Shown in pieces: positions 2,139-21,135 of a DNA stretch of 64,000 nt (its first letter is position 1; the number at the start of each line of letters is the position of its first letter). A program made the position numbers and the translations under genes. The DNA lies in NCBI GenBank assembly GCA_963706325.1, contig CAVPLT010000006.1, forward strand, positions 32,001 through 96,000, in the 5' to 3' direction. This stretch comes from an uncultured Nitrospiraceae bacterium. Its GTDB lineage: Bacteria > Nitrospirota > Nitrospiria > Nitrospirales > Nitrospiraceae. The notes under the pieces are model-generated. The model saw only the letters and a program-made list of their open reading frames with translations. It was not told where the DNA came from and did no database searches.

Positions 2139-2230
2139 ATATTCATTCTACAGTTCGCTTTAACATTACGATTGCAGAGCGAGAGTCATATTTCAAGTGA
2201 TGGTTGATTGTCAGGGAGCTTGTTTGCCTC

Positions 2231-2260
2231 TTGACGGAGGTTGTACGACACCAGTACTGT
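2231..2260 (+). promoter_or_regulatory. Sigma-70-like promoter of sixA
   Basis: TTGACG-N18-TACTGT, ending 5 bp before the ATG. Confidence 0.45.
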
Positions 2261-2265
2261 GACCA

Positions 2266-4541: not shown

Positions 4542-4547
4542 GAGCCT

Positions 4548-5216
4548 CTAGCGATTGGCGGAGGGAGCGATGTGCCGAATGTTCTTACCTTCGACCATAT
4601 ACACGACCAGTTCCCCGATGTTCGTGGCGTGGTCGGCAATGCGTTCGAGCGCCTTGGCGACGAACGTCAACCTGATCGCGCGGGTGATCGTACGGGTGTC
4701 CTCCAGCATAAAGGAGAGGAGTTCCCGAAACAACTGTTCGTTCACGTCGTCCACGAAATCATCGTCGGTGCAGACCTTCCGCGCCAGCATCGGATCCGAA
4801 TTGACGAAGGCATCCAGACATTCTTTCACCATGCGCATCGTCCAATGGGCCATGCGCGGGATGTCGATATAGGGCTTGAGTTGTGGCTCAACGTTCAGCT
4901 CCAACGCCCGCTGGGCAATGTTTTCCGCCAGATCACCCATCCGTTCCAGTTCCGACGAAATCTTCATCCCTGTGGTGATAAAGCGTAGATCGCGCGCGGT
5001 AGGCTGCTGGAGTGCCAGTAACTGAATGCAGAGGTCGTCGATCTCCACATCAAGGGCATTGACGTCGTGATCCTGTTCGACGACGCTGACTGCTAGATCG
5101 GAGTCCCGATCCACCAATGCTTTCAGGGCTTGCTCAATCTGAGACTCGACGAGCGAGCCCATCGCGAGCAATTGCCGCTTCAGATGGGCGAGATCTTGAT
5201 CGAAATGTCGTTGCAT
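4548..5216 (-). CDS. phoU: Phosphate transport regulator PhoU
   Basis: QPTARDLR, ELERMGD and LERIADHATNI motifs. Start moved to MQRHF, which has a GAAGGAG RBS. Confidence 0.95.
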   Translation of the reverse strand: MQRHFDQDLAHLKRQLLAMGSLVESQIEQALKALVDRDSDLAVSVVEQDHDVNALDVEIDDLCIQLLALQQPTARDLRFITTGMKISSELERMGDLAENIAQRALELNVEPQLKPYIDIPRMAHWTMRMVKECLDAFVNSDPMLARKVCTDDDFVDDVNEQLFRELLSFMLEDTRTITRAIRLTFVAKALERIADHATNIGELVVYMVEGKNIRHIAPSANR

Positions 5217-5235
5217 GGTGCGGCTCCTTCTGAAT

Positions 5236-6108
5236 TTATCCGAACCGGCCCGTAATGTAATCTTCAGTCCGTTTGTCGCGCGGCGTCGTGAAAATAGTTT
5301 TGGTATCGCCGAATTCAACCAGCTCGCCCATCAAGAAAAACCCGCATTGGCTTGATACTCGGGCAGCCTGCTGCATGTTATGGGTGACGATGACCACGGT
5401 GTAGGTGTCCTTCAATGTATAAATAAGCTCCTCGATCTTCCCTGTGGCAATGGGATCGAGCGCTGAGCAGGGTTCGTCCATCAAGATCACTTCCGGCTGC
5501 ACGGCCAAAGCCCGCGCAATGCAGAGCCGTTGCTGCTGTCCTCCTGACAAACCAAGGGCGCTCTGCGTCAGGCGATCCTTCACCTCCTCCCACAGTCCCG
5601 CGCCGTGCAAACTTTGTTGTACCAGTTCGTCTAGCCGTCGTTTGTCCTTCGTCCCATGGAGACGAGGCCCGTACGCCACATTGTCGTAAATGGATTTTGG
5701 GAAGGGATTCGATTTCTGGAAGACCATGCCCACGCGTTTCCTGAGATCGGTCACATCGATTTCGTGGTCGTAAATGTCAGCTCCGTCCAGCTCCACCCGA
5801 CCAACCGCCCGCGCCCCTTCCACTAGATCATTCATACGGTTCAGGCAACGCAACAAGGTGGATTTACCGCAACCGGAGGGCCCGATGAAGGAGGTCACCG
5901 AATGCGATCGCACCGTCAGGACCACATGAAAGAGGGCCTGCCGGTCGCCATAATAAAAGTCCAAATTCCGCACCTGAATTTTGGAGTCCACCGATGGGGC
6001 CGGCTGCGCCTGGTTGCCGGTCAGCCGAGACTGTGGAAAGCTCGGAACGATGGGACGAGTCGGGATGATTGGTGGAGTGGACGATAGACTCATAGAATGG
6101 ACTTCCAT
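5236..6108 (-). CDS. pstB: Phosphate ABC transporter ATPase
   Basis: [32 protein letters not shown]-terminal YITGRFG. Confidence 0.97.
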
Positions 6109-6126
6109 GCAAACTCCTCTCAGTGA

Positions 6127-7776
6127 TTACACCGCGGACATCGCAAAACGTTTGCGAAGGCGGTTACGCAACATCACGGCCATCCAATTCAGCAGGACGA
6201 CCACGAGGATCAGAATCAGGGTGGTCATGTACACCATCGGTTTGGCGGCTTCGACGTTCGGCGATTGAAATCCTACGTCATAGATATGAAATCCCAAATG
6301 CATAAACTTTCTGTCGAGGTGCAGAAAAGGCAGGTAGCTGTCCAAGGGGAGCGCGGGCGCTAATTTCACCACGCCGGTCAGCATCAGCGGCGCGACTTCT
6401 CCGGCCGCGCGGGCCATGGCCAGAATCAATCCTGTTAAAATTCCCGGCAGCGCGCAGGGCAGAATCACATGCCAGATCGTTTCGAACTTGGTGGCGCCTA
6501 ATCCAACCGACCCTTCCCGGAAATCTCGCGGGACGGCGGATAGGCCCTCTTCGGTCGCCACGATCACTACCGGCACGGTCAGGAGCGCCAGGGTCAGCGA
6601 TGCCCAGAGAATCCCACCGGTGCCGAACGTAGGATTCGGCAACGATTCCGGAAAGAGCAGTTGGTCGATCGTTCCGCCCAATGCATAGACGAAAAAGGCC
6701 AACCCGAATACACCGAACACGATGGAGGGGACGCCGGCGAGATTATTCACCGCAATTCGGACCAGTCGTACGAGCACCCCTTGCTTGGCATATTCGCGCA
6801 AATAGATCGCGGCCATGACCCCGAACGGCATCACGGCGATCGTCATCAAGAACACCATGAGGACCGTGCCGAAAATCGCCGGAAAGATCCCGCCTTCCGT
6901 ATTCGCTTCACGCGGCTCGCTGGACACAAATAGCCACAGGTTGTGAAGGTAGGCGACCGACTTGTCGATCCAATTCATGTCGTTCGGCCGGCTGACCGCG
7001 ATGACCTGGGCGAGCGTGAGACGTAAGGACTGCCCGTTGGAAAGGGTCAGGAGGAGTGACTTTTTCTCAGCCTCCTTGTGCAGCTGCTCCAACTCCACCG
7101 TTTTAGCTTGGTAATCCTGTTCGAGTGCCGCGATCTGATCTGTCAGACTGCGGTCCACCTCGGTTTCGCGCGAACTGAGCTGTCCGTCGAGCATAAGGCC
7201 CTGACGCTCGAGCCTGGCTTTTTCGATGCGATAGTTGATCGCGCCGATCTCGTCACGCTCAAGATGTTCGGTACGCCGACGCAGCGTGGTGGATTCCTTC
7301 ACCAGCGCGCCGATGGTCGACCAGGTGTCGTCGTCCGAAGTTTCCGTCGTTCCATCCACGGCTACGATGCCGAGGCGACCGAACGCGGGGCCCCACTCGC
7401 GGCGCTCCACGAACGTCAGGTCTTTCGGGCTACTGGTGGAGACGATATCGTCTCCGTTGATCCAACGATACTCAGAGCCCAACACATCACGATTGCCGAC
7501 ACGATAGCGAAATCGTTCCAATCCCTGGGGGTTCTCCGGCGTCGCCGAATGGGGAATGACTTCCTGTCCCACCACCCGGCCGATGACGCTCTCGTTCGTC
7601 TTCAACAGGAGCTGATGCAGGGGGGCGGGCCAGAATTGCCCCAGCCCGTTGACCATAATCAAGCCGAGCATGGCGCCCACCATCAAGAGACTGATCGCCA
7701 CACCGGAGGCCGTCATCCACACGAAGAGTTCGCCACCCCGCCAAAAGCTTTTTATCGAGTCAGCGCGTTTACCCAT
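6127..7776 (-). CDS. pstA: Phosphate ABC transporter permease PstA (long form with periplasmic insertion)
   Basis: PREANTEGGIFPAIFGT, LAGVPSIVFG and ARAAGEVAP motifs. Start MGKRAD overlaps the pstC stop. Confidence 0.92.
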   Translation of the reverse strand: MGKRADSIKSFWRGGELFVWMTASGVAISLLMVGAMLGLIMVNGLGQFWPAPLHQLLLKTNESVIGRVVGQEVIPHSATPENPQGLERFRYRVGNRDVLGSEYRWINGDDIVSTSSPKDLTFVERREWGPAFGRLGIVAVDGTTETSDDDTWSTIGALVKESTTLRRRTEHLERDEIGAINYRIEKARLERQGLMLDGQLSSRETEVDRSLTDQIAALEQDYQAKTVELEQLHKEAEKKSLLLTLSNGQSLRLTLAQVIAVSRPNDMNWIDKSVAYLHNLWLFVSSEPREANTEGGIFPAIFGTVLMVFLMTIAVMPFGVMAAIYLREYAKQGVLVRLVRIAVNNLAGVPSIVFGVFGLAFFVYALGGTIDQLLFPESLPNPTFGTGGILWASLTLALLTVPVVIVATEEGLSAVPRDFREGSVGLGATKFETIWHVILPCALPGILTGLILAMARAAGEVAPLMLTGVVKLAPALPLDSYLPFLHLDRKFMHLGFHIYDVGFQSPNVEAAKPMVYMTTLILILVVVLLNWMAVMLRNRLRKRFAMSAV

Positions 7777-9976
7777 GGCTGTACTTGTCCCGCAGCCGCT
7801 GGCGAACGATTTCAGCCAATGTGTTGATGCCAAAGGTAACAATGAATAGGAGGACGGCCGCCAGGAACAACACCCGATACAGACTGCCCCCGTGAGGGGC
7901 TTCGGGTATTTCCACCGCGATATTGGCCGACAGGGTCCGGAATCCGCTCGCCCAGTTCCAATCCAAAATCGGGGTATTACCGGTCGCCATGAGGACAATC
8001 ATGGTCTCGCCGATCGCGCGACCGAACCCGATCATCACCGCGGAAAAGATTCCGGGGCTGGCCGAGAGCAAAACCAAATAAAGAACGGTCTGCCAGCGAG
8101 TCGCGCCCAACGCGAGGGAGCCGGCAATTTGAGTCTTGGGCACATTCGCGAGCGCTTCTTCTGCGATGCTATAGATGACGGGCACGATCGCGAACCCCAT
8201 GACGATGCCCACCACCAGAGCGTTGCGCTGGTCGTACTGAATCCCAAGCCGGTTCGAGAGCCACGCCTTGATATCGCCGCCGAACCACCAGGTCTCGATT
8301 GACGAATTGGCCCAGAGACAGGTTCCAATCCCAAGCGCCAGGATGGGAATCAAGAGGAGCGCCTCCTGTCCAGGGCGTAGGCGTCGCCTGAGGGCGGGGG
8401 GAACGAGATACCACAGAAGAGAGCTCGCGATGACGAGCAGCGGCAATGCCACGGCCATTCCAGCGACGGCCGGGAGCAACCGCTCCAGCAGGGGTGCCAG
8501 CCACAGTCCGGCAAGAAAGCCCAATACGACCGTCGGCAAGGCGGCCATCACCTCAATGACCGGCTTGATCTTCGCGCGAAGATCCGGATGCATGAATTGC
8601 GCCGTGCACATCGCCGCCAGAATGGCGATCGGCACGGCCAGGAACAACGCGTACACGGTGCCTTTGAGCGTCCCGAAGGCAAGCGGCATCAAACCGAGTT
8701 TGGGTTCAAAATCATCCGACCCGGAAGACGATTGCCACACGTAGGCGGGCTGGTCGTACCCTTCATACCAGACCTTGCCGAACAGGGTCTCAAAAGTTAC
8801 TTCAGGGTAGGCATTGTTCAATTGATAGAGCGACAACTGGCCAGCCTGATCGAAGGCCATCAACCCGTCGCCTTTCGGCGCGAAGGTCACGGCGCGAATC
8901 GGAGACTCACCGTTCGACAACTTGAGCCAGGTTTGGTCGGCCGTTGCATGGTGGAGAAACATGTGGCCCTTCGCATCCGCCGTAACAAACCCCTTCACCC
9001 GCTGGGAGGGAGCAAAGGCCGTCACCGGCGCGGCGTGAGACCGGAACGTATGCATTTTGGTGAGACGCCAACGAGACTGATCCTCTGCGTGCCGTATAAG
9101 CCCCCAAGTCGAGACCTCGCCCTCCGCCGTCATGACAACCAGGCTGCGATCACCGCTCAAGAAGCCGAGCCCCGTCACCGCCGTGTTCGGTGTGGTCACC
9201 GCATAGCCGCCTTTCACGGCGGGCGGCTCCCTGTCGGAATCTACGGCGATATGCAGCACGATCCCTTCCCCCGTGCCGATGTACAAATTTTCGAACGAGC
9301 CGTCGAGCGCCAGGGACGTCACGGCACCTGTGGGCTTAGGAAGCTCTGTGATGACTGGATCGTGATCCGCGGCGTCCTCCGCCGGTATTCGCACCAGGAT
9401 CAGCCGACCTGCTTGGGAGAGAATGGCCAACAGGCTTCCACGGTCGTTGAACCGGTACGCCAGCGTCTTGATGGGACCTATCGTAAGCGGGAGTAGTCGA
9501 CCGGCTCGGACCATCGGACGTTTTTGTCGCTCGCCGGAACTGGAAAATTCCGTGCTCGTGCCGATCTTCAGCAACAGCACTTCGCCCTCGGCCGTGCCGA
9601 CCGCGTAACGGGGAGCACTGCCTCCTCCTTGGGCCATTGCCGTGAAATGCCTACTCTTGAGGTCGGCCGGCAGCTCCATCGGAATCGGCTGGCCGGAAGC
9701 CAGGTCGATGAACTGCACACCGCTCGATGTGAGTATCTGCGCGATCTCACGATGTTCATCTACCGCCAGTTGAACCGGCCCCTCCGCCGTGAGTAAGGAA
9801 GGCACGATCATGCGCTGGGTCAATTTAGCGGTAGGGGCCGTAAACAGCGGCGTGACTTCTCGAAAGAGGAAAAAGAAAATGCCGAGAATGCTGAGGATCG
9901 TCGCCAAGCCGCCGACGGTGATCACGACGCGTGCCAGGCGATCGATCAGCGGACGCATGTGAAGCGGTGTGAACAT
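7769..9976 (-). CDS. pstC: Phosphate ABC transporter permease PstC (long form with beta-propeller-like periplasmic domain)
   Basis: KVWYEGY, WQSSSGSDDFEPK, GRAIGETMIV. WD40-like repeats in the N-terminal half. Confidence 0.92.
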   Translation of the reverse strand: MFTPLHMRPLIDRLARVVITVGGLATILSILGIFFFLFREVTPLFTAPTAKLTQRMIVPSLLTAEGPVQLAVDEHREIAQILTSSGVQFIDLASGQPIPMELPADLKSRHFTAMAQGGGSAPRYAVGTAEGEVLLLKIGTSTEFSSSGERQKRPMVRAGRLLPLTIGPIKTLAYRFNDRGSLLAILSQAGRLILVRIPAEDAADHDPVITELPKPTGAVTSLALDGSFENLYIGTGEGIVLHIAVDSDREPPAVKGGYAVTTPNTAVTGLGFLSGDRSLVVMTAEGEVSTWGLIRHAEDQSRWRLTKMHTFRSHAAPVTAFAPSQRVKGFVTADAKGHMFLHHATADQTWLKLSNGESPIRAVTFAPKGDGLMAFDQAGQLSLYQLNNAYPEVTFETLFGKVWYEGYDQPAYVWQSSSGSDDFEPKLGLMPLAFGTLKGTVYALFLAVPIAILAAMCTAQFMHPDLRAKIKPVIEVMAALPTVVLGFLAGLWLAPLLERLLPAVAGMAVALPLLVIASSLLWYLVPPALRRRLRPGQEALLLIPILALGIGTCLWANSSIETWWFGGDIKAWLSNRLGIQYDQRNALVVGIVMGFAIVPVIYSIAEEALANVPKTQIAGSLALGATRWQTVLYLVLLSASPGIFSAVMIGFGRAIGETMIVLMATGNTPILDWNWASGFRTLSANIAVEIPEAPHGGSLYRVLFLAAVLLFIVTFGINTLAEIVRQRLRDKYSHG

Positions 9977-9997
9977 TCGTCGGTCTCGTGCTGATCG

Positions 9998-11017
9998 TCA
10001 GCGGATCTTGGTCGCTTGTTTCTCAGCCAGAGTCGCATCAACCGGAAAATACCCGTCTCTCATGACGTCAGATTGACCCTCCCGGCTGTAGACATAGGTG
10101 AGAAACTCTCTGACGATCGGCGATAGGGGTTTGCCGGGAGCTTGATTCACGTAGATGTAGAGGTAGCGCCACAGAGGATAACTACCGTTCTTGGTGTTCG
10201 CTTGGGTCGGCTCGATATACGGCTGGCCCGCCTTCGCCGCCAGAGGAACCATTCTCACGCCGGACGTCGTATAGCCGATCCCGCTGTAGCCGACCCCATA
10301 GCGGTCTTCGCTGATGCCCTGAACCACTGACGCGGATCCCGGCTGTTCCTTCACCTGATCCTTGAAGTCGCCATTCTTGAGCGCATGGTCTTTGAAAAAT
10401 CCATAGGTTCCGGAAGCCGAATTTCGTCCGTAAAGACTGATGGGGGCCGGAACCCAATCGCCGCTTAATCCCAGCTGACCCCACTTAGTGAGATCCGTCG
10501 CCTGTCCCTGTCGCCGTGATTTCGAAAAGAGCGCATCCACCTCCGGCATGCTCAATCCTTTGATCGGATTGTCTTTGTTGACGAAGAGAGCCAAGGCGTC
10601 GACTGCCACGGGGTAGGGAGTCGGCGGATATCCGAACTTCGCTTCGAATGCATCGATCTCGCTGGACTTCATCGTCCGGGACATGGGGCCGAGTTGCGCC
10701 GTGCCTTCAATGAGGGCCGGCGGCGCCGTGCTGGACCCTTTCCCTTCCACCTGGATCTTCACATTGGGATATTGTTTTCGAAATCCTTCGGCCCAGAGGG
10801 TGATCAGATTGTTGAGCGTGTCCGATCCGATGCTGTTGATCGTGCCGGACACACCACTCACTTTCTGATAGGGCTTCATCTCCTGGTCGAGCTTCACATT
10901 TTCGGTGATGGCGGCAGGCTCACCCGTGCCGGCGCTCCACAAATTCGTCGTCATGAACGGCCCCAATACGGTGAGCGTGACACCCATGCAGATCTGACGA
11001 CGCGAAGCAATCATCAT
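9998..11017 (-). CDS. pstS: Phosphate-binding periplasmic protein PstS (copy 1)
   Basis: GSDT, GSST, GRNSASGTY and YPLWRYLYIY motifs. GGAGG RBS upstream of 11017. Confidence 0.95.
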   Translation of the reverse strand: MMIASRRQICMGVTLTVLGPFMTTNLWSAGTGEPAAITENVKLDQEMKPYQKVSGVSGTINSIGSDTLNNLITLWAEGFRKQYPNVKIQVEGKGSSTAPPALIEGTAQLGPMSRTMKSSEIDAFEAKFGYPPTPYPVAVDALALFVNKDNPIKGLSMPEVDALFSKSRRQGQATDLTKWGQLGLSGDWVPAPISLYGRNSASGTYGFFKDHALKNGDFKDQVKEQPGSASVVQGISEDRYGVGYSGIGYTTSGVRMVPLAAKAGQPYIEPTQANTKNGSYPLWRYLYIYVNQAPGKPLSPIVREFLTYVYSREGQSDVMRDGYFPVDATLAEKQATKIR

Positions 11018-11065: not shown

Positions 11066-11119
11066 AGCGTAGAATTGACTCATTGCGTGACCGTCACTGT
11101 CGCGTTAACGGCATGTTAA
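11066..11119 (-). promoter_or_regulatory. Pho-box-like promoter of the pstSCAB-phoU-ppx operon
   Basis: Coding strand TTAAC-N6-TTAAC-N6-GTGAC-N6-GCAAT-N10-TACGCT. Confidence 0.75.
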
Positions 11120-11166
11120 ATCTCTACCCTTGTGCTGCAGAGTCCTGCGTCGTCTCGAGACCGGAA

Positions 11167-11220
11167 TTAACGCGGGCGCGACCATTTCAAGAGGAGACGG
11201 TAACAAGTCGGTCTTATCCT
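11167..11220 (+). promoter_or_regulatory. Pho-box-like promoter of RR2
   Basis: TTAAC-N6-GCGAC-N6-(AAGAG)-N6-GTAAC-N10-TATCCT. Confidence 0.55.
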
Positions 11221-11228
11221 CGCTTCCT

Positions 11229-11921
11229 ATGTCAGGCGCCATGATCCACATCATTGAAGATGAACCGCACCATGCCATATTGCTCGACCGAGCCTTATGC
11301 CAGGCTCGGTTCGCCACTACTCTGGCCGCGGATGGCCATACCGGATGGGAGAATGTGCAGCGCCTCATGCCCTCATTGATTCTGCTCGACCTCATGTTGC
11401 CAGGCATGGATGGTCAAGAGGTCTGCCGGTTGGTTCGAAGCACTCCGTCCACCAGACATATCCCCATCATCATGCTGAGTGCGCTGGGCACCGAAGAAGA
11501 TCGTATTTCGGGAATTCAAATGGGGGCTGATGACTATGTGGTGAAACCATTCAGTCCGCGTGAAGTCGTGTCTCGCGTGCAGGCCGTCCTGCGTCGAAGC
11601 CAAGAGCTCGTTTCTGCAGCGACCGCCCTGTCGGACGCCTCGATCACGGTGCAAGGGCCATATTTCGTGGTATCTCTGGAAGGGCGGCAACTCACAGTTT
11701 CAAGTATGGAACTGGCGCTCCTCCGCGCGATACTCCCTCGGGAGGGTGAATTAGTCAGGGCAGAAGAGCTGACCGCCCTTCTAGTTGGAGAGAACCAGCG
11801 GATTCCGCTGGAAGAGCTCGATCACCGGATTCGATTTCTTCGCCGAAAACTCGAGAATAGCGGCGCAGGAACCATCGAGATATTGCCAGGGTTCCGCTAT
11901 CGACTTCCTACGGCTCTGTGA
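11229..11921 (+). CDS. OmpR/PhoB-family response regulator (RR2), divergent from pstS
   Basis: IIEDE, LILLDLMLPGMDG, IIMLSA and DDYVVKPF motifs. Divergent winged helix. Start is 11229 or 11241. Confidence 0.9.
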   Translation: MSGAMIHIIEDEPHHAILLDRALCQARFATTLAADGHTGWENVQRLMPSLILLDLMLPGMDGQEVCRLVRSTPSTRHIPIIMLSALGTEEDRISGIQMGADDYVVKPFSPREVVSRVQAVLRRSQELVSAATALSDASITVQGPYFVVSLEGRQLTVSSMELALLRAILPREGELVRAEELTALLVGENQRIPLEELDHRIRFLRRKLENSGAGTIEILPGFRYRLPTAL

Positions 11922-11963
11922 CAATCGTCATGCGCCGCCGTCAGTCAACGCCGCATGTCGTCG

Positions 11964-12201
11964 ACGGCCAACAACACCCCCGTCATGACAGATATCCGCC
12001 CGGACGAGCCAGGCGTCATTTCCGGTATGCTCAGCCTCTCGCGGAATCTCGGGCTCATCACCAGTGCATCCTTAGGGGCGCTGTGTTCGCGTTCGCATCG
12101 GCGACGACCAACATTTCAACGGCGCACCCGAGGCAGTTGCCACTGGTATGAGAATTACATTCGCAATCGCGGCGGTTCTGATCGTCGTCGCGATCGCCAT
12201 A
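11964..12201 (+). pseudogene. Frameshifted C-terminal remnant of an MFS (DHA2-like) transporter
   Basis: Three frames join into TANNTPVMTDIRPDEPGVISGMLSLSRNLGLITSAS / GAVFAFASATTNISTAHP / EAVATGMRITFAIAAVLIVVAIAI, with shifts near 12073 and 12130. Confidence 0.7.
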
Positions 12202-12365
12202 CAACTAGCCAACACGGTGTTTGATACACATTTTCTCCGATCCGGGAGGGTGTTGTCGGTCAGTTCTCGGCAGTTGAGTAAAATTCTACGGTTCCGGCGT
12301 ACATCCCGTGATGGGCGTGGGCGTAGCGAATGGATGGGAGGAGGTGGCCGTATTAAGAGAGCGGA

Positions 12366-12934
12366 TCAGCGCACCTGGAGGCCTCGGTGGAACCGAGTGC
12401 CCCGCAAACGGCAGCAGGTTCCACTTAGCTGGGCAACAGTATTGACTTGGCTGCTGGAGGATGTCTGCCAAGAGGACGAGCCGTTACTCGACGCCTGCTG
12501 ATACTTCGCCAGCGAGTCATTGGCGATTTCACTCGCGGGTTGGTCCATGAAGGATCCGCCTGTCGCACTTGAGCTCGAGGAGCCTGGCGTTGATGACCGG
12601 GATGACGTCGAGCCGTCGGTCCTTGTAGCCTGCTGAGGATCGCTTACAATCGATTGGGCGAACCGATTCACAAAGGAGTGGCCGTCTTGAGCGCCACCAT
12701 GGTGACGATGCCGATGGTGCCCCTGACGCCATTGACGCCCGAGGTCTGAGCCGGATCAATGGCCTGCGAGGGTTGACTCGCATTCTACTGGGCCGCTGCC
12801 TTGGAAATGGAGGTCCTGTCAGCTGGCTGCTGACAACCGCAAGAGGATTGGTTTCTCGTCGAAGCGCCGACTCCAGAAAGATAACTCTGAAGCCACTGCA
12901 GAACAGGAGAGGACCCCACACTTGAGACAGACAT
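12366..12934 (-). pseudogene. Disrupted Ser/Gln/His-rich hypothetical protein
   Basis: AAGGAG RBS, then MSVSSVGSSPVLQWLQ…SISKAAAQ, an in-frame TAG at 12785-12787, NASQPSQ…, and a frameshift near 12724 into GHHRHRHHGG…FVNRFAQSIVSD…. Confidence 0.55.
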
Positions 12935-13070
12935 ACCGTCTCCTTGGTAATCAGAAAGTCTTGCGATCCATGCTTGATGACTCGCTGATTTGGAGAAAAG
13001 GCGCCGATCCATGTGCCGCCCTCAGCGGAACTTGCGCAGCAAGAAACACCACCGCATCTCGTGGCCCCAG

Positions 13071-13310
13071 TTAGCCTACAGAAGCCAGCGCAGGCGCTCT
13101 GCTTGAAGTCCGTTCGACCTCGTATTGAAATCCTCTCCGAAGAAGAATGAGCTTCCCTCTCCGGCTCAGGTCATCGATGGTCTTGAATACTTGGTTCCAG
13201 GTGAGCTCGGGAAGCAGAGTGACGACCTGCTCCAGGGTTAAAGATTTCCGAACGCGCAACAACTCGAGGATGAGAGATTCACTCTTGAGGGAGATAGCTG
13301 GATGGACCAT
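13071..13310 (-). CDS. Small hypothetical protein, winged-helix-like
   Basis: 79 aa with AGGAGG RBS. Helix-helix-helix-beta pattern (ILELLR…LTLEQVV…TWNQVFKTIDDLSRRGKLIL). Confidence 0.7.
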   Translation of the reverse strand: MVHPAISLKSESLILELLRVRKSLTLEQVVTLLPELTWNQVFKTIDDLSRRGKLILLRRGFQYEVERTSSRAPALASVG

Positions 13311-13411
13311 GATGCTCCTCCTGGTTGGACTTTCTGTCTCCTTGAGAACGGCTCGCTCGCAGAGCCAGTGAACAGAGACTACCTTCGCACCCTAGTCTTT
13401 GCCTCGGCGGT

Positions 13412-13449
13412 GTCTCTTGGAGATCAACAATGCGTCAATTTCGTGTTAA
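13412..13449 (-). promoter_or_regulatory. Pho-box-like repeats upstream of the 79-aa gene
   Basis: TTAAC-N6-TTGAC-N6-TTGAT-N6-GAGAC. No -10 element at the spacing seen in the other promoters. Confidence 0.5.
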
Positions 13450-13464
13450 CTCGCCGCGATGCCT

Positions 13465-13974
13465 CTAGAATTCCTCTCGGCCGCACACTGTGCCTTTAAC
13501 GGCGGCATCTCCATAGGCCGGGGAACAACGCACGGCCACGACCCGCACGGCGCCCAATGTCAGAAGAATCGCTCCCAAGAGCAGCAACTTGACCTGATCG
13601 GCCTCCTTGAACCACAGAGAAATGATCTCTGTCAGCATGACGACCAGGATGGTATCCACGATGAAGGTCACCTTCACGCGCCCCTCGGAGAAGTACGTCA
13701 CGGTGGTCTTAAATACCTCGACCACCGCAAGCAAGATCAGCGTATCGACGATGATTTGCCGGAGACCGACTTCGACCGGTGCGTTGAACATCAACCCGAT
13801 ATCCATGAAGGTCTTGATTACGCCGCCCGTCAGCGCGATGAGAATCGTCAGAATCAGGAGACTCAAGACCGCTTTGATTCCCTTCATCCATAACTCAGTG
13901 AGATCTGTATCGATGACTCGGGCCGCCAAATCAGAGAAACGATGCACGCGAGGCTGAAGATTTGTGAATGTCAT
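13465..13974 (-). CDS. psiE: Phosphate-starvation-inducible PsiE-family membrane protein
   Basis: Four TM segments, motif LAVVEVFKTTVTYF…VKVTFIVDT. AGGAG RBS before MTFTNL. Confidence 0.8.
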   Translation of the reverse strand: MTFTNLQPRVHRFSDLAARVIDTDLTELWMKGIKAVLSLLILTILIALTGGVIKTFMDIGLMFNAPVEVGLRQIIVDTLILLAVVEVFKTTVTYFSEGRVKVTFIVDTILVVMLTEIISLWFKEADQVKLLLLGAILLTLGAVRVVAVRCSPAYGDAAVKGTVCGREEF

Positions 13975-14036
13975 ACGTAAGGACTCCTGGTGGTGAAGGA
14001 AACTTCCTGCCATCGTTAGACCTCTACATTACGCTG

Positions 14037-14090
14037 AGTCTATGCGAGCGCTGTTCCAGGAGGATCACGGCTCCATTACAGAAGCGTTAC
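14037..14090 (-). promoter_or_regulatory. Pho-box-like promoter of psiE
   Basis: GTAAC-N6-GTAAT-N6-GTGAT-N6-GGAAC-N10-TAGACT. Confidence 0.7.
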
Positions 14091-14142
14091 GTTAGTCGGA
14101 AATCACTCGACGTCCATTCGCACGGCGCAAGATTCGAAAGGA

Positions 14143-14196
14143 TTTACGCCGGCGTAACAGTGGAGATATGCCAATGAAATCTCGCTCCGTTACTCT
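14143..14196 (+). promoter_or_regulatory. Pho-box-like promoter of RR3
   Basis: TTTAC-N6-GTAAC-N6-GATAT-N6-GAAAT-N10-TACTCT. The ATG begins 7 nt after the -10. Confidence 0.6.
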
Positions 14197-14202
14197 TGAT
14201 CC

Positions 14203-14913
14203 ATGCAGGCTCCAATGGACTCTATGCGCCATCGAGGAATCGCCGTCCTCCTCGTCAGCAGGGACGAGCTGTATGCCGAGGCGATCCATCACCTGTTGAG
14301 ACCCAACGGGTATTACGTGACACTCGCGCCGACCGCCGAAGCCGCTCTGTCCCTCGCGCCACGAGTGGCTTTCAAACTGGCTCTGATCGACCGACGACAC
14401 AAGATCATCGCGATCCTGCGGCGCGATCCGGCCCTTCGACACATCCCCATGATCGCCATCCAGCCTCATGGGGAACCCTGCACAGAAGAGGACACGTTGG
14501 AGGAGCTGGCTGCTGGGTTCGATATGGTGCTGGACTCTCACCGTCATCGCGAATGGCTGGCCATCATCAAGGCGCTGATTCGAAGGCAAGAGTTTCAGGC
14601 TGTTCCCGTCAGGGAATTTCGGGTGAACTCACTGTCCATGAACCTGGACCGACACGAAGTCATGGTCGGAGAGAAGCCGATCCAACTAACCCCAAAAGAG
14701 TTCCAGATTCTTCGAGTCTTCCTCCAGAACCCCGGGCGCGTGCTGACACGCCAGGAGCTCCTCAACCTCGTATGGGGAGAGGACTATGCGCTAGAGGAAC
14801 ATGCCCTGGACGTGCATATCCACGCACTCCGACAGAAACTGGAATACAATCCGCCTGCCCCGCGATGGATTCTCACGATCAGAGGAGTGGGATATAAATT
14901 GTCTTCCACGTGA
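14203..14913 (+). CDS. OmpR-family regulator with atypical (pseudo-)receiver domain (RR3)
   Basis: Well-conserved wHTH (LTPKEFQIL…LDVHIHALRQKLE…TIRGVGYK). The receiver lacks the acidic pair, the switch Thr/Ser and the conserved Lys-Pro. Confidence 0.85.
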   Translation: MQAPMDSMRHRGIAVLLVSRDELYAEAIHHLLRPNGYYVTLAPTAEAALSLAPRVAFKLALIDRRHKIIAILRRDPALRHIPMIAIQPHGEPCTEEDTLEELAAGFDMVLDSHRHREWLAIIKALIRRQEFQAVPVREFRVNSLSMNLDRHEVMVGEKPIQLTPKEFQILRVFLQNPGRVLTRQELLNLVWGEDYALEEHALDVHIHALRQKLEYNPPAPRWILTIRGVGYKLSST

Positions 14914-14985
14914 GAGGAGAGACACGATGTGCTCCATGATCTCCCGGCAAGAAACAATGCGCTGTCACGGATTCCACGACAGAGT

Positions 14986-15039
14986 TTTACACGTTGGTAA
15001 CATCGCTCGAACGCTGGTGTGATCCAGATCGACTACCTT
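14986..15039 (+). promoter_or_regulatory. Pho-box-like promoter of the porin operon
   Basis: TTTAC-N6-GTAAC-N6-CGAAC-N6-GTGAT-N10-TACCTT. Confidence 0.7.
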
Positions 15040-15084
15040 CCCCCCGCGTTCACTACACCAATAGACACAAGGAGGATGTTCGTA

Positions 15085-16632
15085 ATGGAAGTACGCTCGT
15101 TGGTTACATCCATCAGCGGCCTCGTCGGGACTGCAGTATTGAGTCTCTGCGTGACTGCATCCTGGGCCGATGATTCGTCAGGACAGGGGGGAAAGACCCC
15201 TCAGCCGAATCCCGTCGTGGCCCAAACCATCGGTCCGTCTCCCGCTGGCGCCAGCGCTCCGCCATCATCTCAGGAAGTTCCGTTGGGAGGCACGTCGATC
15301 GAGGATCTTCTCATGCAGAAGGGGACGATCACCAAGGAAGAATGGATTCAGATTCGCGCCGAGCAGGAATACAAGGGCGGGGAGATAGACAAACGGGTCG
15401 ATACGCTGGATGAATGGAAGTCCAGGAATGAATTATTGCCGATCCTCCGGGACAAGGTGAACTTCGGACTCAATGCCCTGCAATTTTTATACACCCACCA
15501 GGATGCGCATGTGCCGGAAGGCAGGAGCCAGGACAACCTCTCGATTCGGCGCTCTGAAATTCTGTTCTGGGGCCGGCTCAGCGATACCCTCCCACGATGG
15601 CATACATTGATGGAGTTTCAGAGCATCACCTTGCAGAACAACACGCCGACGGGCGGAAGCGCCGCCACCGGCGGAGTGCCGACCTCGGCGACTTTCTTTC
15701 GTGAAGCCTATCTCGACGTACGACCGGTGCAAGCTTGGGCCCCCAATCTGAATTATTTTCGAATGGGTGTCTTTCGAATGCCCTTCGGTATCTTCACGGA
15801 AACCTCGGGTGGTTTGCGCGACGTCATCAGTTCTCCTTACCTCACCTCGGTGGGCTCCGGAGTCGGCAACCGCACCGGGTCGGCCGGAACGATTGACTTT
15901 ATCCAAGAGCGCGATTACTTCGTTGACATGCGCGGCAAATTGTTCAACCGGTTGGAATATGCGGCCGGTATTATGAACAATAATAACTACACAGCGAACG
16001 CCACCGGAGCGAACGCGCCAAAAGCCTTCTATTCCCGGGTCCGTCTTTTCGGAAACGATGTCTCCTTCATCAGCTTCACGACGATTCAAGGCGAATCGAA
16101 CAACGCCAATACCAACATCAACGGCCGTGGCAAGGGCGCCTTCGATCGCTATGGATTAGATGCCCGCTATACATCGAAAATCATTCCTGGTCTGATGGTG
16201 CAGGGCGAATGGTGGCAGGGACATGATGGGGCCAATCAAACGACGGTCGGTCGACCGGCCAACGGGACCTGTGATTTTCAGCCGAGTTGTGGAGGCTCCG
16301 GCGCACCCGGTGTGCAACGACGCACCTGGTATGTGTTGGCTAAGTACTTGATCACCCGGGGACCATTTGAGAATTTCGAGCCCGTTATCATGTATGACCA
16401 ATTTGATCCCAACACCGGGATCGGCAACGATCTGTACACGAGAACCATCGCCGGACTCACCTATTACTTTGAAAACTTTCCGCCGAAGGTTCAATCCAAA
16501 TTGCAGGTTAACTACGAGTTCCGCCATCATTCCGGCAATGGGCCGGGCAACGTCGTCGATCCCACGCGTGGCGTCGGAGACCCTTTCGCCCAGAATGCTT
16601 TCTTGGTACAGTGGCAAATACGATTTATGTAA
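15085..16632 (+). CDS. Outer-membrane porin, probably phosphate-selective (OprO/OprP-like)
   Basis: Signal peptide, IEDLLMQKGTITKEE segment, amphipathic beta strands, C-terminal QWQIRFM. AGGAGG RBS. Confidence 0.7.
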   Translation: MEVRSLVTSISGLVGTAVLSLCVTASWADDSSGQGGKTPQPNPVVAQTIGPSPAGASAPPSSQEVPLGGTSIEDLLMQKGTITKEEWIQIRAEQEYKGGEIDKRVDTLDEWKSRNELLPILRDKVNFGLNALQFLYTHQDAHVPEGRSQDNLSIRRSEILFWGRLSDTLPRWHTLMEFQSITLQNNTPTGGSAATGGVPTSATFFREAYLDVRPVQAWAPNLNYFRMGVFRMPFGIFTETSGGLRDVISSPYLTSVGSGVGNRTGSAGTIDFIQERDYFVDMRGKLFNRLEYAAGIMNNNNYTANATGANAPKAFYSRVRLFGNDVSFISFTTIQGESNNANTNINGRGKGAFDRYGLDARYTSKIIPGLMVQGEWWQGHDGANQTTVGRPANGTCDFQPSCGGSGAPGVQRRTWYVLAKYLITRGPFENFEPVIMYDQFDPNTGIGNDLYTRTIAGLTYYFENFPPKVQSKLQVNYEFRHHSGNGPGNVVDPTRGVGDPFAQNAFLVQWQIRFM

Positions 16633-16702
16633 TGATCGGGACGGGCTCGCACAGCCATACATTCACAACCGAGCATGTCTCAATACAAGAGAAGGACAAC
16701 CA

Positions 16703-17242
16703 ATGAAGCTACAACGAGGAGCGCTCGTAGTCTTACTGATCGGGATAGTTTTCAGTGGATGCGGATCACCAAGGATCTTTTCGCCCCAGGTGTTGGAGGG
16801 CGTGGATGACAACTTTGATTTTGCGGGCTGGCGGATGGTCCCGAACGCCAAGGCGGGAAAAAAGGTGCAACTCGGTGGCCGTATCGTGCAGGCTCCGCAA
16901 AAAGACGGCCTTGTGACCATGGTCCTCACGCAGCTCCCGATCGTCGACCACCCGGCCTATGGGCCGACTGATACAGGACGCGGACGGGGAGAATTCCTGG
17001 TCTATTTCCATGGGAACATTCCACCCAACTGGTTGCAGGCGGGCAATCGTGTCATCGTGATCGGAACGACGCAAAACGCTGCGGTCGTGGCCGTTGAGGA
17101 CAGTCAACGCAGCCTTCCCGCGCTCACGGCGCAGTGTCTCCATATTTGGAATACCGGCGGAAAAGAGATTGCCGAATTCCCGAACTTTGGAGCAGGATAC
17201 CAGCCGCTTGAAGAGGATACCTATTGCGCGGAGTCACGGTAA
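16703..17242 (+). CDS. Slp-family outer-membrane lipoprotein
   Basis: Lipobox FSG-C, GKKVQLGGRIV and GNRVIVIG motifs. GAAGGA RBS. Confidence 0.8.
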   Translation: MKLQRGALVVLLIGIVFSGCGSPRIFSPQVLEGVDDNFDFAGWRMVPNAKAGKKVQLGGRIVQAPQKDGLVTMVLTQLPIVDHPAYGPTDTGRGRGEFLVYFHGNIPPNWLQAGNRVIVIGTTQNAAVVAVEDSQRSLPALTAQCLHIWNTGGKEIAEFPNFGAGYQPLEEDTYCAESR

Positions 17243-17586
17243 CAGTCCCGACGAGAGGGCGGCTCGCCAGACAAGGGGGCGGCGCGCGTGATCGATTCTT
17301 CGCGCTCCTCCTGGTGTTGGCTTTCACCGCCTGCGGGGGCGAGGTCACTCTTGTCCGAGACACCCCGAATGGAGGAATCGTCACCTATACGTTCCAGAAT
17401 GAGACCGATGTACTCACGTCGAGCCATCGGCGTGAGGCCATGGGACTCATCAAGCAGAAATGCCCCGCTGGATCACATATCCAGAAAGAAGGCGAAGTTC
17501 CGAAGGTCAGCCAGGCGGCGGATCGCGCCTGGCGCGGGCAAATGGGAGGCGACAGATTGTGGGGTATTCAGTTCACATGCGATTAG
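17224..17586 (+). CDS. Hypothetical lipoprotein
   Basis: Lipobox FTA-C, two further Cys (KC…FTCD). GAGG RBS before the TTG start. Confidence 0.7.
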   Translation: MRGVTVTVPTRGRLARQGGGARDRFFALLLVLAFTACGGEVTLVRDTPNGGIVTYTFQNETDVLTSSHRREAMGLIKQKCPAGSHIQKEGEVPKVSQAADRAWRGQMGGDRLWGIQFTCD

Positions 17587-17618
17587 CTCACCTGCGGACC
17601 ACATGCACACTAACGGGT

Positions 17619-18548
17619 ATGCGACGTGGCATCTACCTGGCATTGCTCGCCTTGCTGGTATCCGCCTGTTCGCTAGCGACCGGGGGGAAGGTCTTGTACG
17701 ACCAACAGGACCGTCAAATCGGTCTACAAACGGACCCCACAATCCGTCGCGCCCCGTCACCGACAGAAAACAATCATCCTGCGCAGCTCACTGCCGAAGA
17801 TGTTCGAACACTGCTCGTCTCATTGATGATAAGCGGTTGGAGCGGGACCCTCGTTGGAGTTGTGGAACAGCCCCGGCCGATTCCAGTCTTCACCGAGGCC
17901 GAGCTCAGTCACATCGCAGCGCCCATCGCCCTTGCCTTTCAGCAGGCGGGCCCCACCGACCGAATATTCTTCTCCTTGCCCAGGTCACAGACGACCTATA
18001 GCGAGGAACGCACAACCGGTGCCCTGTTTCTTCGTGGCCGCTATCTCCATGTGGTCATTACGGATCATTCCGCCTTCACAAAGGCCGATACGGCCGGGGG
18101 AGACGTGAAAGATCCACGCGATATGAAAGGGATGAAGCTGTGGGTTGCGGCACCGGCAACGAGAGCTACGGTGCCCGATGCGGAGGAGCCTCGCTGGGCC
18201 CACTTTGAGACGGTACACCTCTCATTGAACGCCAAGGATATCATCGCGCTGCGAAGCCGGGCCGCTGAACCTTCGTTCGAAGCATCGCACCCGATTCCGC
18301 CACCGGTGAAGACCTCATCGTCGACGGTGGTGAATAATGGCGCGACAGCTGAACCACTCACCAATCAGACAGACGAACTTCGTCAGCAGGTCCGGGAACT
18401 CACCAGGTCAAATTTGGATCTTCGCGATCGCCTGGAGGATCAACATAAGCAGATGCAGGCCTTGCAGGATCAGTTAGTGAAAGCCCAGCAGGAGCTTGAC
18501 TCAGCCCGCCCAAAGACCAAGAATTCCCGCAAGGCTCCAGCTCCATAG
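17619..18548 (+). CDS. Hypothetical lipoprotein with C-terminal coiled coil
   Basis: Lipobox VSA-C (MRRGIYLALLALLVSAC) and a heptad-rich C-terminus. Confidence 0.75.
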   Translation: MRRGIYLALLALLVSACSLATGGKVLYDQQDRQIGLQTDPTIRRAPSPTENNHPAQLTAEDVRTLLVSLMISGWSGTLVGVVEQPRPIPVFTEAELSHIAAPIALAFQQAGPTDRIFFSLPRSQTTYSEERTTGALFLRGRYLHVVITDHSAFTKADTAGGDVKDPRDMKGMKLWVAAPATRATVPDAEEPRWAHFETVHLSLNAKDIIALRSRAAEPSFEASHPIPPPVKTSSSTVVNNGATAEPLTNQTDELRQQVRELTRSNLDLRDRLEDQHKQMQALQDQLVKAQQELDSARPKTKNSRKAPAP

Positions 18549-19342
18549 AGAATCCACCAACCTCCGAGCCGTTTCAGCGCCGGTGCCACGTCTGGAAACT
18601 GTGGGTTCTTCAAGCAGAACGGCCCTTGCCGCCGCAGAACTGCATATGGGTGAGCCTGAGCAACGCCGTATTTGGCCTGCCTCCCCTGCGGCAATTGCGA
18701 TAGAACCAAACGCACTATTCTTTGGGGCTCGTCGCTTTGAACCTCGTCCTCTGCCCATCGCCTTCTTGTAGGTCTCCCTGACTGCTTGGCCTACAGCCAT
18801 TTGACCGAACGCAATCTGTCTGAGAATCTTCGCACGGTCCGGGCGACGCGACGTTTCATGTCCCTCCATCATCCTATGTTTCCGCCTGGGTCTCCATGAT
18901 GTCCCGGCGAACCCAATTCCGCTGTCCGTCCTTCTCAATAGTCGTGGCCACCCTCCTCGCCTGAGCGATGTCGTCGTCATGAACAAGGGTCGCCGCAATT
19001 CTTTACTGAACATCAGCCGGCGCGAAGGCATGAGCTGTCGCTGAGGCAGCCTTGCAGCGACCGTCAAACTCGCCCGACACCCAGGCACATCACCTCAGCC
19101 CCATTCACTGTCGGCGATGCCTGCAGAGGCGATGTGGACAGGGTGATCGGGGAGCAGATCAGCAAGGAGCGAGGTTCCTCAATGGTCCGATAATAGGAAA
19201 GGGGATAACTGTTTGTGCAGACTATAGAGGCGCAGATAGTTCCTCAAAATAGCGCGCTGCTACTTGTAGCCCAGCGCCGCAGGCATGAGACTGGGGTGGC
19301 TCAATGACCCTGCAGACGCAAGGGGTTGCAAGAGTAACACGA

Positions 19343-20467
19343 TCAGTCGGGGAGTGGGGCATTTGAGCCGGCGATGCCGAGCGCCAGAAAGTTCTTCTTC
19401 AGTTGGTTCATCGGAAGGGGGAACAACCCTGCCTTCATGACGGTTTCCTGTCCCTCACGGCTCGTGATGAACGTCAAGAACTCCTGCACAGCAGGCGCGA
19501 GGGACGCTTTCGGAGCCTTGTCAACATAGAGGTACAACATCCGGCGCAAGGGGTAAGTTTGATCACCCATTGTTGCCGCCGTGGGGGCCACGTAAGGCAT
19601 GCCCTCGTTCTCCGCAAGAGGAACGATCCGCACGTTGGAGGTTTCCAGGCCTAATCCACTGTAGCCGATGCCTAATTGATCGCGGGTCAGATCCAGAATT
19701 ACCGAAGCCGCACCTGGTTCCTCCCGAAGAGTCGGCACAAACTCACCCCCGGCCAAACAATGTTCCTGGAAAAAAGCCCGCGTTCCGGACCGGCGATCCC
19801 GACCATAGAGCCTGATCGCTGCCTTCTCCCATCCATCATGAAGGCCCAGCGCCCCCCACTGTGTCAGGTTCGCTTTTAATCCGCGATTGTGAGTGGTTGA
19901 AAACATCGCGTCCACCTGGTCGAGTGTGAGCCCCGGGAGTGGATTGTCCCGATGGACATAGAGTGCCACGGCATCCACCGCCACTGGAATCCCCGTCGGT
20001 TCATATCCATGTTGCGTCACAAATTGATTAATTTCCGTATCCATTAACTCGCGTGAGGAGGCCACGAGAGACACATAGGTCGGTCGTTCTTCCTTGAGGG
20101 TGATTTTCCCGCTCAGTTTGGCGGGTGGTTGAATAAACTCCGTAACCGCCTTGCTCGATCCTCCGCCGCTCACATTGATCCTGACATTCGGCTGGCGCCG
20201 TTGGAATTCGCCTGCAAGACGATTCAGGAGAGGGGCCATAGTGTCGGAGCCTTGGACGCGGATGCTTCCAGCCACCTGAGTCTGCGCGGAATATTGTTGC
20301 AGCCCTTCATCAATCGCCAGACTCGCCGTTGGACCGGCATTCTCGGCCTTCGCAGCCTGAATCGGAAGCACGGCGAAGGAACCGGCGGTCGCCATGATAC
20401 CCGCCAAGCTCACTACAGCTGTTCGTTGTCCCCATCCCCGCTTCGGTTCCTGACTCAGCATGCTCAT
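19343..20467 (-). CDS. pstS: Phosphate-binding protein PstS (copy 2, stand-alone)
   Basis: GSDT, GSS, GRDRRSGTR and YPLRRMLYLY motifs. GGAGG RBS before MSMLSQ. Confidence 0.85.
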   Translation of the reverse strand: MSMLSQEPKRGWGQRTAVVSLAGIMATAGSFAVLPIQAAKAENAGPTASLAIDEGLQQYSAQTQVAGSIRVQGSDTMAPLLNRLAGEFQRRQPNVRINVSGGGSSKAVTEFIQPPAKLSGKITLKEERPTYVSLVASSRELMDTEINQFVTQHGYEPTGIPVAVDAVALYVHRDNPLPGLTLDQVDAMFSTTHNRGLKANLTQWGALGLHDGWEKAAIRLYGRDRRSGTRAFFQEHCLAGGEFVPTLREEPGAASVILDLTRDQLGIGYSGLGLETSNVRIVPLAENEGMPYVAPTAATMGDQTYPLRRMLYLYVDKAPKASLAPAVQEFLTFITSREGQETVMKAGLFPLPMNQLKKNFLALGIAGSNAPLPD

Positions 20468-20507
20468 ATCCTCCGGTAAAGTGGTTGCATCGTCTGTAAA
20501 TGGCCTC

Positions 20508-20561
20508 ATCCTACGGATCGATGATTGCTGATACATCACTGGTATGTTACGGCTGTGTTAA
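20508..20561 (-). promoter_or_regulatory. Pho-box-like promoter of pstS2
   Basis: TTAAC-N6-GTAAC-N6-GTGAT-N6-GCAAT-N10-TAGGAT, nearly the same as the pstS1 element. Confidence 0.78.
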
Positions 20562-20624
20562 ATACCGAGGCCCTCTGGGAAGGTGGGCAGACACACGCTC
20601 GAGACAAAGTCTCCGGCCTCGAAA

Positions 20625-21008
20625 CTAGAATTCGTCGACCGACACCGGCTGCAACAGGTCCCGGACCGACAAGACACCGACAATGGCGCCGCTCTTTAAG
20701 ACCCCCAGATGGCGCGTGTGATGGTGCTGCATCAAGTCGGCGGCCTCCGTGATCGGTCGTCGTTCGTCGATGCTGATGACCGGCGTGCTCATGATCGACT
20801 CCACCGGCACGTAAAGCGCCGGTTTGCTTTCCCCGACGACCTTCCTGACGATGTCAGGTTCTGTCACGATCCCGACCACACGATCATTCTGCGCGACAAA
20901 CACGCTGCCGACATTACGGTCGTTCATCACTCTGGCAGCATCTGCCACGGATGTCCCGGCCTGGACCGTCACGAGTTTCGTCGTCATGAGCTGACTGATT
21001 GTTACCAT
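20625..21008 (-). CDS. Stand-alone CBS-domain pair protein
   Basis: Two CBS motifs (VVGIVTEPDI, IVGVLSVRDL). AGGAGG RBS. Confidence 0.9.
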   Translation of the reverse strand: MVTISQLMTTKLVTVQAGTSVADAARVMNDRNVGSVFVAQNDRVVGIVTEPDIVRKVVGESKPALYVPVESIMSTPVISIDERRPITEAADLMQHHHTRHLGVLKSGAIVGVLSVRDLLQPVSVDEF

Positions 21009-21081
21009 TCTGGCACCCTCCTGGTTGATCTGTAGCGCATTGCCTCGGTGCATCACCGGCCATGCAGGTTCTCTACAGGGA

Positions 21082-21135
21082 AGACTAGACGAACCTCGTT
21101 GCAGGACGGTTAGGAGAGGGTAACTTTTCTGTTAC
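21082..21135 (-). promoter_or_regulatory. Pho-box-like promoter of the CBS gene
   Basis: GTAAC-N6-GTTAC-N6-CTAAC-N6-GCAAC-N10-TAGTCT. Confidence 0.68.

Follow-up and report, generated by a model that had tools for sequence, protein, structure and literature searches.

In the textbook phosphate switch, PhoB activates transcription through a mechanism that involves two dimers and sigma4, and in Bacillus subtilis the core binding region of PhoP consists of four TT(A/T/C)ACA repeats with a period of about 11 bp. The Pho box unit is 11 nt long with letters that vary by species, as outlined in extracts of PMC4415409 and PMC2648988, and an extract of PMC2275107 gives the PhoP unit as six conserved plus five variable nucleotides. 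At the Escherichia coli pstS promoter, the repeats GTCAT/GTCAT/TACAT/GTCAC follow one another with an 11-bp period and are separated by 10 bp (N10) from the hexamer TATTTT; the general E. coli rule, stated in an extract of PMC1906773, is that the last repeat lies 10 bp before the -10 element. The same extract describes the cyanobacterial SphR box as CTTAACCT in at least three repeats with 3-bp linkers, and an excerpt of PMC3333781 reports the box (c/t)GT(n)AC for the PhoB protein (DVU1083) of Desulfovibrio vulgaris, validated by electrophoretic mobility shift assay. The present analysis concerns a 54-bp promoter element, built of four short repeats and a TAnnnT hexamer, that recurs in a 64,000-nt stretch of DNA (the window; C6:32001-96000 of a 4.24-Mb source genome that is 96% complete) from an uncultured Nitrospiraceae bacterium. 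Among named records, those closest in pstS belong to Nitrospira, one of them being N. defluvii FP929003.1 at 83%. Nitrospira species are the main nitrite oxidisers and comammox organisms of soils, waters and treatment plants.

The motif is real, being a conserved promoter element in Nitrospira and its relatives. It is a known operator written in lineage-specific letters, most likely the Nitrospirota Pho box. The probability that the repeats are Pho boxes bound by phosphorylated PhoB, which would switch genes on when phosphate is short, is estimated at about 87%. A sequence-only reading of the same DNA had pointed out seven such elements, with four repeats at an 11-bp period, a 10-bp gap and TAnnnT, each oriented into a named gene; coordinates, strands, spacing and orientation were all correct. 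An eighth site in the window and a ninth on contig C7 are new (scores in bits are from the matrix of relatives described below, and fractions refer to upstream regions in relatives):

11066..11119, minus strand: predicted Pho-box promoter of pstS1 and the pstSCAB-phoU-ppx operon (TTAAC/TTAAC/GTGAC/GCAAT, N10, TACGCT; rank 1, 40.7 bits)
11167..11220, plus strand: predicted Pho-box promoter of RR2, an OmpR-family gene (24.9 bits; -10 hexamer ends 8 nt before the ATG)
13396..13449, minus strand: eighth site, before a winged-helix-like open reading frame (ORF) of 79 amino acids (21.9 bits; poor -10, CAAAGA)
14037..14090, minus strand: predicted Pho-box promoter of psiE (box before psiE in 17/19)
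14143..14196, plus strand: predicted Pho-box promoter of RR3, an OmpR-family gene (-10 hexamer ends 6 nt before the ATG)
14986..15039, plus strand: predicted Pho-box promoter of the porin gene (box in 6/9)
20508..20561, minus strand: predicted Pho-box promoter of pstS2 (38.1 bits; box in 21/21)
21082..21135, minus strand: predicted Pho-box promoter of the CBS-pair gene (box in 11/11)
C7:520055, plus strand: ninth site, before a DksA/TraR-like gene beside ppk1 (22.1 bits)

The position weight matrix scan that the earlier reading had proposed as a check places the seven sites far above background in the genome, with a simulated-genome control near zero. A matrix derived exclusively from 116 sites in relatives is independent of the seven sites in sequence but not in selection, because these 116 were picked with the seven-site model; with this matrix, the seven occupy ranks 1-7 in the genome (24.9-40.7 bits), and nine genome sites reach at least 20 bits against 0.2 per simulated order-4 Markov genome. 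When each site in turn was held out and the pooled model plus hexamer was run over 8,469,394 positions, only 3-21 positions matched or beat the held-out site, RR2 being the weakest.

The refined consensus reads KTWAC-n6-KTWAY-n6-nTRAn-n6-GnAAY-n10-TAnnnT, with hardly any variation in repeat 1 and the weakest conservation in repeat 3. Among 110 distinct sites scoring at least 14 with a repeat-only model, TAnnnT lies at a gap of 10 in 90, any other gap being found at most 4 times. The spacing between repeats peaks at 11, 22 and 33 bp (93, 53 and 28 over a background of about 4-19). The three positions preceding the first repeat (-3 to -1), and that repeat only, are enriched for A-(G/A)-A (A 65, G 59/A 31 and A 82 of 110), perhaps reflecting a wing or minor-groove contact, and repeat 1 is followed by A in most cases (62 of 94 sites). 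The 376 pentamers of these 94 sites include 204 KTnAY, 72 GTnAC, 71 TTAAC (mostly at repeat 1) and 4 GTCAY. The initial description of the pentamers as roughly of (G/T)TAAC type is exact in only 10 of the 28 by hand count, but A at position 4 holds in 28/28; the two pstS elements, said to be almost identical, are nearly so in their pentamers but differ in their spacers. Among 18 pstS1 orthologue sites, identity is 0.84 over the motif columns against 0.40 over those of the spacers. A -35 element is absent (mean match to TTGACA 0.95-1.54 of 6), and an extended -10 TG occurs in 0 of the 94 sites, bearing out the suggestion that the repeats stand in place of the -35 element.

Conservation across relatives extends to most of the genes concerned. 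In upstream regions of orthologues from 33 pstS loci of relatives, scanned with the repeat-only model at a cut-off score of at least 12, sites were found for pstS1 (27/31), RR3 (13/17), RR2 (10/17), the 79-amino-acid ORF (8/18, with TAnnnT in only one of these 8) and slp (3/19), in addition to the fractions listed above for psiE, porin, pstS2 and CBS genes, which were obtained at the same cut-off. No site of this score precedes the control genes pal (0/12), lip120 (0/13), u362 (0/4) or pstC (0/24), which amounts to 0/53 in all. A second set comprised 80 named pstS loci, overlapping the first set, of which 3 were dropped for short upstream sequence; at a cut-off of at least 16 bits within 500 nt, a box lies upstream of pstS in 63/66 Nitrospirota loci and 3/11 loci of other phyla, and in-gene controls scored below 1 bit but for a single one, where the window used as control shared sequence with a real site. 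The sequence GTCAT/GTCAT/GT(A/C)AC/GTAAC-N10-TAA, with letters between those of E. coli and Nitrospira, is found at two of the loci from other phyla. By hand tally, the exact pattern matches 129 times in 19 same-genus genomes against 8 for a reversed control, and 95 times in 26 genomes of family f1 against 7, but single matches are weak evidence in AT-rich lineages because the control pattern matches there too.

Target genes that had no part in building the motif are also preceded by the box in relatives, at loci chosen by pattern matches or by a second phoB copy. They include alkaline phosphatase PhoA (PF00245), PhoX (PF05787), Porin_O_P, pit, a ppk paralogue and phoB, as well as an OlsB-like acyltransferase that scores below its model cut-off. 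The box stands directly before phoB in genomes G108 and G038. In several genomes (L209-L218, L143; genera g7 and g10), a second phoB, 70-75% identical to the protein on contig C1 considered below, lies in a phosphate island together with phoX, ppk, olsB-like and DksA-like genes.

Compared with the described systems, the element has the architecture of the E. coli pstS promoter, namely four 11-bp direct repeats of which the last ends 10 bp before TAnnnT, in the same 54-bp frame. The repeats had been regarded as unlike those of E. coli and similar to PhoP and SphR boxes; the letters do differ from E. coli, but the architecture does not. The targets, including pstS, psiE and phosphate porins, are also those of the E. 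coli Pho regulon, and the candidate PhoB retains T194, V197 and R201. On the other hand, Nitrospira spacers are not A/T-rich, and phoBR is unlinked in the source genome. The GTnAC core recalls the Desulfovibrio PhoB box, whose regulator also controls a pstS operon according to the excerpt cited above, and is exact in the 72 pentamers noted above; the Desulfovibrio box as described there has two repeats with a 4-bp spacer, in contrast to four position-specific repeats with a fixed -10 in Nitrospira. With the SphR box the element shares the TTAAC core, the 11-bp period and a regulator gene that usually lacks autoregulation. The strict form of that box (the 8-bp unit CTTAACCT in at least three repeats) was not found: TTAAC accounts for only 71/376 pentamers, there is a gradual change from TTAAC in the upstream repeats to GnAAY in the downstream ones, and conservation does not extend to the flanking C/CT letters. 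In its letters, the Nitrospira core lies between Desulfovibrio (c/t)GT(n)AC and cyanobacterial CTTAACCT. The Bacillus PhoP box, compared by description only, is similar in having four repeats at a period of about 11 bp and different in that Nitrospira repeats begin with G as often as with T.

The likely binder is an unlinked PhoB-PhoR pair on contig C1, outside the window. The genome encodes seven OmpR-type domains, four in kinase operons (PhoR-like, KdpD-like and two others) and three kinase-less in the phosphate island of the window. In an alignment of five proteins (the C1 candidate, the three island proteins and E. coli PhoB, with the other three kinase-linked regulators left out), the residues T194, V197 and R201, which an extract of PMC3973317 names as PhoB base contacts, are kept only by the product of C1:1187108-1187818. 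This protein adjoins the best PhoR match of the genome and a pit-DUF47 pair, and it is 88-92% identical in 18/18 same-genus genomes. In families f2 and f3, its orthologue is encoded no more than about 7 kb from pstS, and in f2, f3 and f5 it adjoins pst genes; the best model matches of the pair are PhoB and PhoR, both under curated cut-offs. The single-contig genomes G022, G025 and G028 encode only two OmpR-type proteins each, one of them beside pstS, and all three have a box in the pstS region. Four genomes of family f4 have no close PhoB match (best 39-40% or none) and no box at pstS. The quick tree of 72 regulators was not used for any orthology claim on E. coli PhoB. Overall, the designation of the element as the Pho box of this lineage finds support in its conservation, in the targets of relatives and in a predicted PhoB orthologue that travels with pst genes.

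From the motif, its spacing, conservation and targets, and the lack of -35 and extended -10 elements, we infer the binder, the mode of activation, the start sites and the signal along the following lines. At low phosphate, phosphorylated PhoB, whose gene lies with that of PhoR outside the window, would bind the boxes as two dimers arranged head-to-tail, following the E. coli model. The first dimer would occupy the upstream pair of repeats (KTWAC/KTWAY), which is strongly conserved, and the second the weaker pair downstream (nTRAn/GnAAY). This second pair would cover the place of the -35 element and bring sigma70-type RNA polymerase to the -10 hexamer located 10 bp beyond it.

Several observations weigh against a PhoB regulon. 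The C1 protein falls below the TIGR02154 cut-off for PhoB (233.6 vs 296.2 bits) and scores nearly equally on YycF/WalR (230.5), the PhoR match is also below its cut-off (307.9 vs 334.2), wing residue R219 is K in the C1 protein, and phoB of the source genome lacks a box (best 2.8 bits). The core KT(A/T)A(C/T) or GnAAY is not CTGTCAT, the strict E. coli-type repeat consensus, which was not found in the Nitrospira site; GTCAY makes up only 4/376 pentamers, and the E. coli pstS promoter reaches only 1.9 bits on the Nitrospira matrix. The loss in family f4 was probably one event, and genome G021 of this family has a 29.8-bit site (L137:3261-3314) in AT-rich DNA with no ORF directly after it. Across the phylum, the strict pattern occurs in 117/151 genomes vs a PhoB-like match in 147/151, and co-occurrence at this level is uninformative because nearly all genomes have the match and the control also hits AT-rich ones. 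The near-equal PhoB and YycF scores, together with targets that are not obviously phosphate genes (the CBS protein and the DksA-like genes), would also suit a C1 regulator that binds the box but reports a non-phosphate signal, such as WalR/ResD-like envelope or general stress. This is improbable in view of the targets across families, which form the classic phosphate set (pstS, psiE, phoA, phoX, OprP-type porin, olsB, pit and ppk), and of C1-type regulator genes in or beside pst-phoU operons in several families.

Similarly little weight is given to an autoregulated island circuit in which the local RR3 (or RR2), and not PhoB, binds the box. Both genes sit among the sites, each with a box of its own, and RR3 has an intact winged helix with a recognition helix invariant in 17/17 homologues, but close RR3 DNA-binding domains were found in only 10/151 phylum genomes, all of family f1, and the box extends to f2, f3, f5 and beyond. 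In addition, RR3 lacks T194 and R201, and the recognition helix of RR2 is variable and degenerate; both proteins are probably regulon members rather than the binder. That the seven sites are due to chance, were hand-fitted or are non-functional remnants of a local promoter duplication is hardly credible. Pentamers 3 and 4 are indeed degenerate, and the sites were first picked by eye, but the leave-one-out ranks and the Markov control contradict a chance pattern, as do the higher conservation of motif than spacer columns, the 11/22/33-bp peaks and the absence from control genes.

The phosphate island spans window positions 579-21008 and comprises RR1, CHAD, sixA, ppx, phoU, pstBAC, pstS1, RR2, the 79-amino-acid ORF, psiE, RR3, porin, slp, pstS2 and CBS genes. 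The original labels for both pstS genes, psiE, the CBS gene and two OmpR-family regulators agree with Pfam/NCBIfam, and the porin label with Atlas clusters:

2988..11017, minus strand: pstS1-pstC-pstA-pstB-phoU-ppx, predicted operon under the first box (NCBIfam/Pfam; pstC without its own box)
11229..11921, plus strand: RR2, OmpR-family protein (receiver intact; recognition helix degenerate and variable)
13071..13310, minus strand: 79-amino-acid ORF of a Nitrospirota family (winged-helix-like by Atlas name; no Pfam match)
13465..13974, minus strand: psiE (PF06146)
14203..14913, plus strand: RR3, OmpR-family protein (receiver degenerate; recognition helix strictly conserved, non-PhoB)
15085..16632, plus strand: outer-membrane protein of 515 amino acids, likely phosphate-selective porin O/P-like (Atlas), followed by slp and two further ORFs
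19343..20461, minus strand: pstS2, second PstS-family binding protein (NCBIfam/Pfam)
20625..21008, minus strand: CBS-pair protein of 127 amino acids (Pfam)

For the porin, Pfam and NCBIfam scans gave no match; in the Atlas, the clusters closest to it are those of phosphate-selective porin O/P-like proteins (score 0.99), and 14-22% of the members of the two best clusters carry PF07396. A CHAD-domain gene and a sixA-like phosphatase gene (window 1311-2763), which are linked to polyphosphate and phosphorelay, adjoin ppx without a box here, and a sixA homologue is divergent from a boxed psiE in L218. Between RR2 and the 79-amino-acid ORF, about 1.1 kb (window 11918-13070) contains only short fragment-like ORFs, and the two genes are nearly adjacent in most relatives.

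RR2 and RR3 show complementary departures from the canonical regulator, as neither combines an intact receiver with a PhoB-like recognition helix. The receiver residues of RR2 are kept in 23/23 homologues, and its recognition helix varies freely and is degenerate. In RR3, the acidic pocket, T83 and K105 are lost, and the helix HALDVHIH(A/S)LR is invariant in the 17 homologues, with H/A/H/A-S at positions 193/194/200/201. Both transcripts are predicted to be leaderless, a prediction that is new here. In the RR2 family, the ATG follows the hexamer by 6-8 nt in 23/23 genes (18 at 8 nt, one of them with a nearer in-frame TTG), a gap too short for a ribosome-binding site. For RR3, eight rows of close orthologues have the ATG 6 nt beyond the hexamer, and distant paralogues have longer Shine-Dalgarno leaders. 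A third kinase-less OmpR-family protein, RR1 (window 579-1307, plus strand), has an intact receiver and a recognition helix degenerate like that of RR2; no box was found upstream (best -2.7), and RR1-related genes lie about 10 kb from pstS in many same-genus genomes.

Outside the island, the ninth site points into a PF01258 gene at C7:520147-520547 (L036:3148-3548), which is split between two frames near C7:520266 by a mutation or an assembly error. Among 14 same-genus loci picked by off-island sites, ppk1 is nearby in 13, and the boxes resolved at these loci point into such zinc-finger genes, not into ppk1. The relatives of this gene include intact forms of 101-153 amino acids and short 71-amino-acid forms without the coiled coil. 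A reciprocal test, restricted to the best 30 loci of 151 matches in 81 genomes, gave 33 DksA/TraR-like hits, of which 19 carry a box-like site at 6.2-27.3 bits, with 11 reaching 16 bits or more, and 14 lack one (-3.0 to -15.1). Among the box-bearing hits, the zinc finger is present and 12/19 have the DxxDxA tip motif, but the DksA scores of three that were tested are below curated cut-offs. A quick tree of 29 rows, from which the split copy and three short forms were omitted, places all 14 box-less proteins in a single tight cluster (support 100), separate from the box-bearing proteins with their long branches; the long branches, the 71-amino-acid forms and the split copy could also reflect gene decay. 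The target gene resembles the DksA/TraR family in its C4 zinc finger (PF01258) and, in many full-length homologues, a DxxDxA-type tip, and differs in that box-bearing genes are extra, fast-evolving paralogues that stand apart from a housekeeping clade without boxes. Polyphosphate synthesis in E. coli requires DksA (10.1101/2020.03.11.988303). The titles and abstract openings of the papers found on DksA/TraR with PhoB or the Pho box contained no Pho-controlled DksA paralogue.

These genes raise the tentative and rather doubtful possibility of a second tier of the phosphate response in Nitrospiraceae, for which no description was found in the literature. PhoB might directly induce the DksA/TraR-like paralogue, often beside ppk1, and, from leaderless mRNAs, the complementary half-working paralogues RR2 and RR3. 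In this scheme, RR2 would be a sink for phosphate or, in heterodimers, a brake on PhoB, and RR3 would activate a different set of genes independently of phosphorylation. If so, the DksA/TraR-like paralogue would retune RNA polymerase and polyphosphate storage in phosphate starvation. The switch itself is textbook; the possible surprise is that a DksA-like paralogue and two atypical response regulators are predicted to be under its direct control. No description of a Nitrospira Pho box or regulon was found in the literature, subscription journals and supplements lying outside the search, and the main text of the N. moscoviensis transcriptome paper (PMC6606698) holds no phosphate content. The specificity of the motif (nine sites of at least 20 bits vs 0.2 expected per genome) allows the phosphate-starvation regulon to be read from the genomes of uncultured members, and the motif supplies marker transcripts for phosphate limitation of nitrifiers.

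Some weaker matches were set aside. Use of the box by phages was dropped as a candidate, since the 35 strict-pattern matches in IMG/VR are mostly AT-rich (GC 0.21-0.51) and 11 lie inside open frames of at least 150 codons; on inspection, without a Pfam scan, none of the ORFs downstream looked like a phosphate gene. Mid-scoring matches of the seven-site matrix in the source genome (e.g., C5:276935 before a desaturase-like gene, C1:173439 and C4:145252) were rejected at 9 bits or less with the matrix of relatives. Another site, C4:19963, reaches 18.6 bits with no -10 and no clear gene. At L134 (G018:C6:1302000-1310000), divergent boxes precede proteins of 372 and 816 amino acids, both without a Pfam match. 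Finally, a weaker family of 11-bp-spaced TTAAG/CTAAT repeats, with TAnnnT also at a gap of 10, occurs in intergenic DNA at C2:74540, C1:451989, C7:328606 and C2:101965, and is possibly the operator of another OmpR-type regulator.

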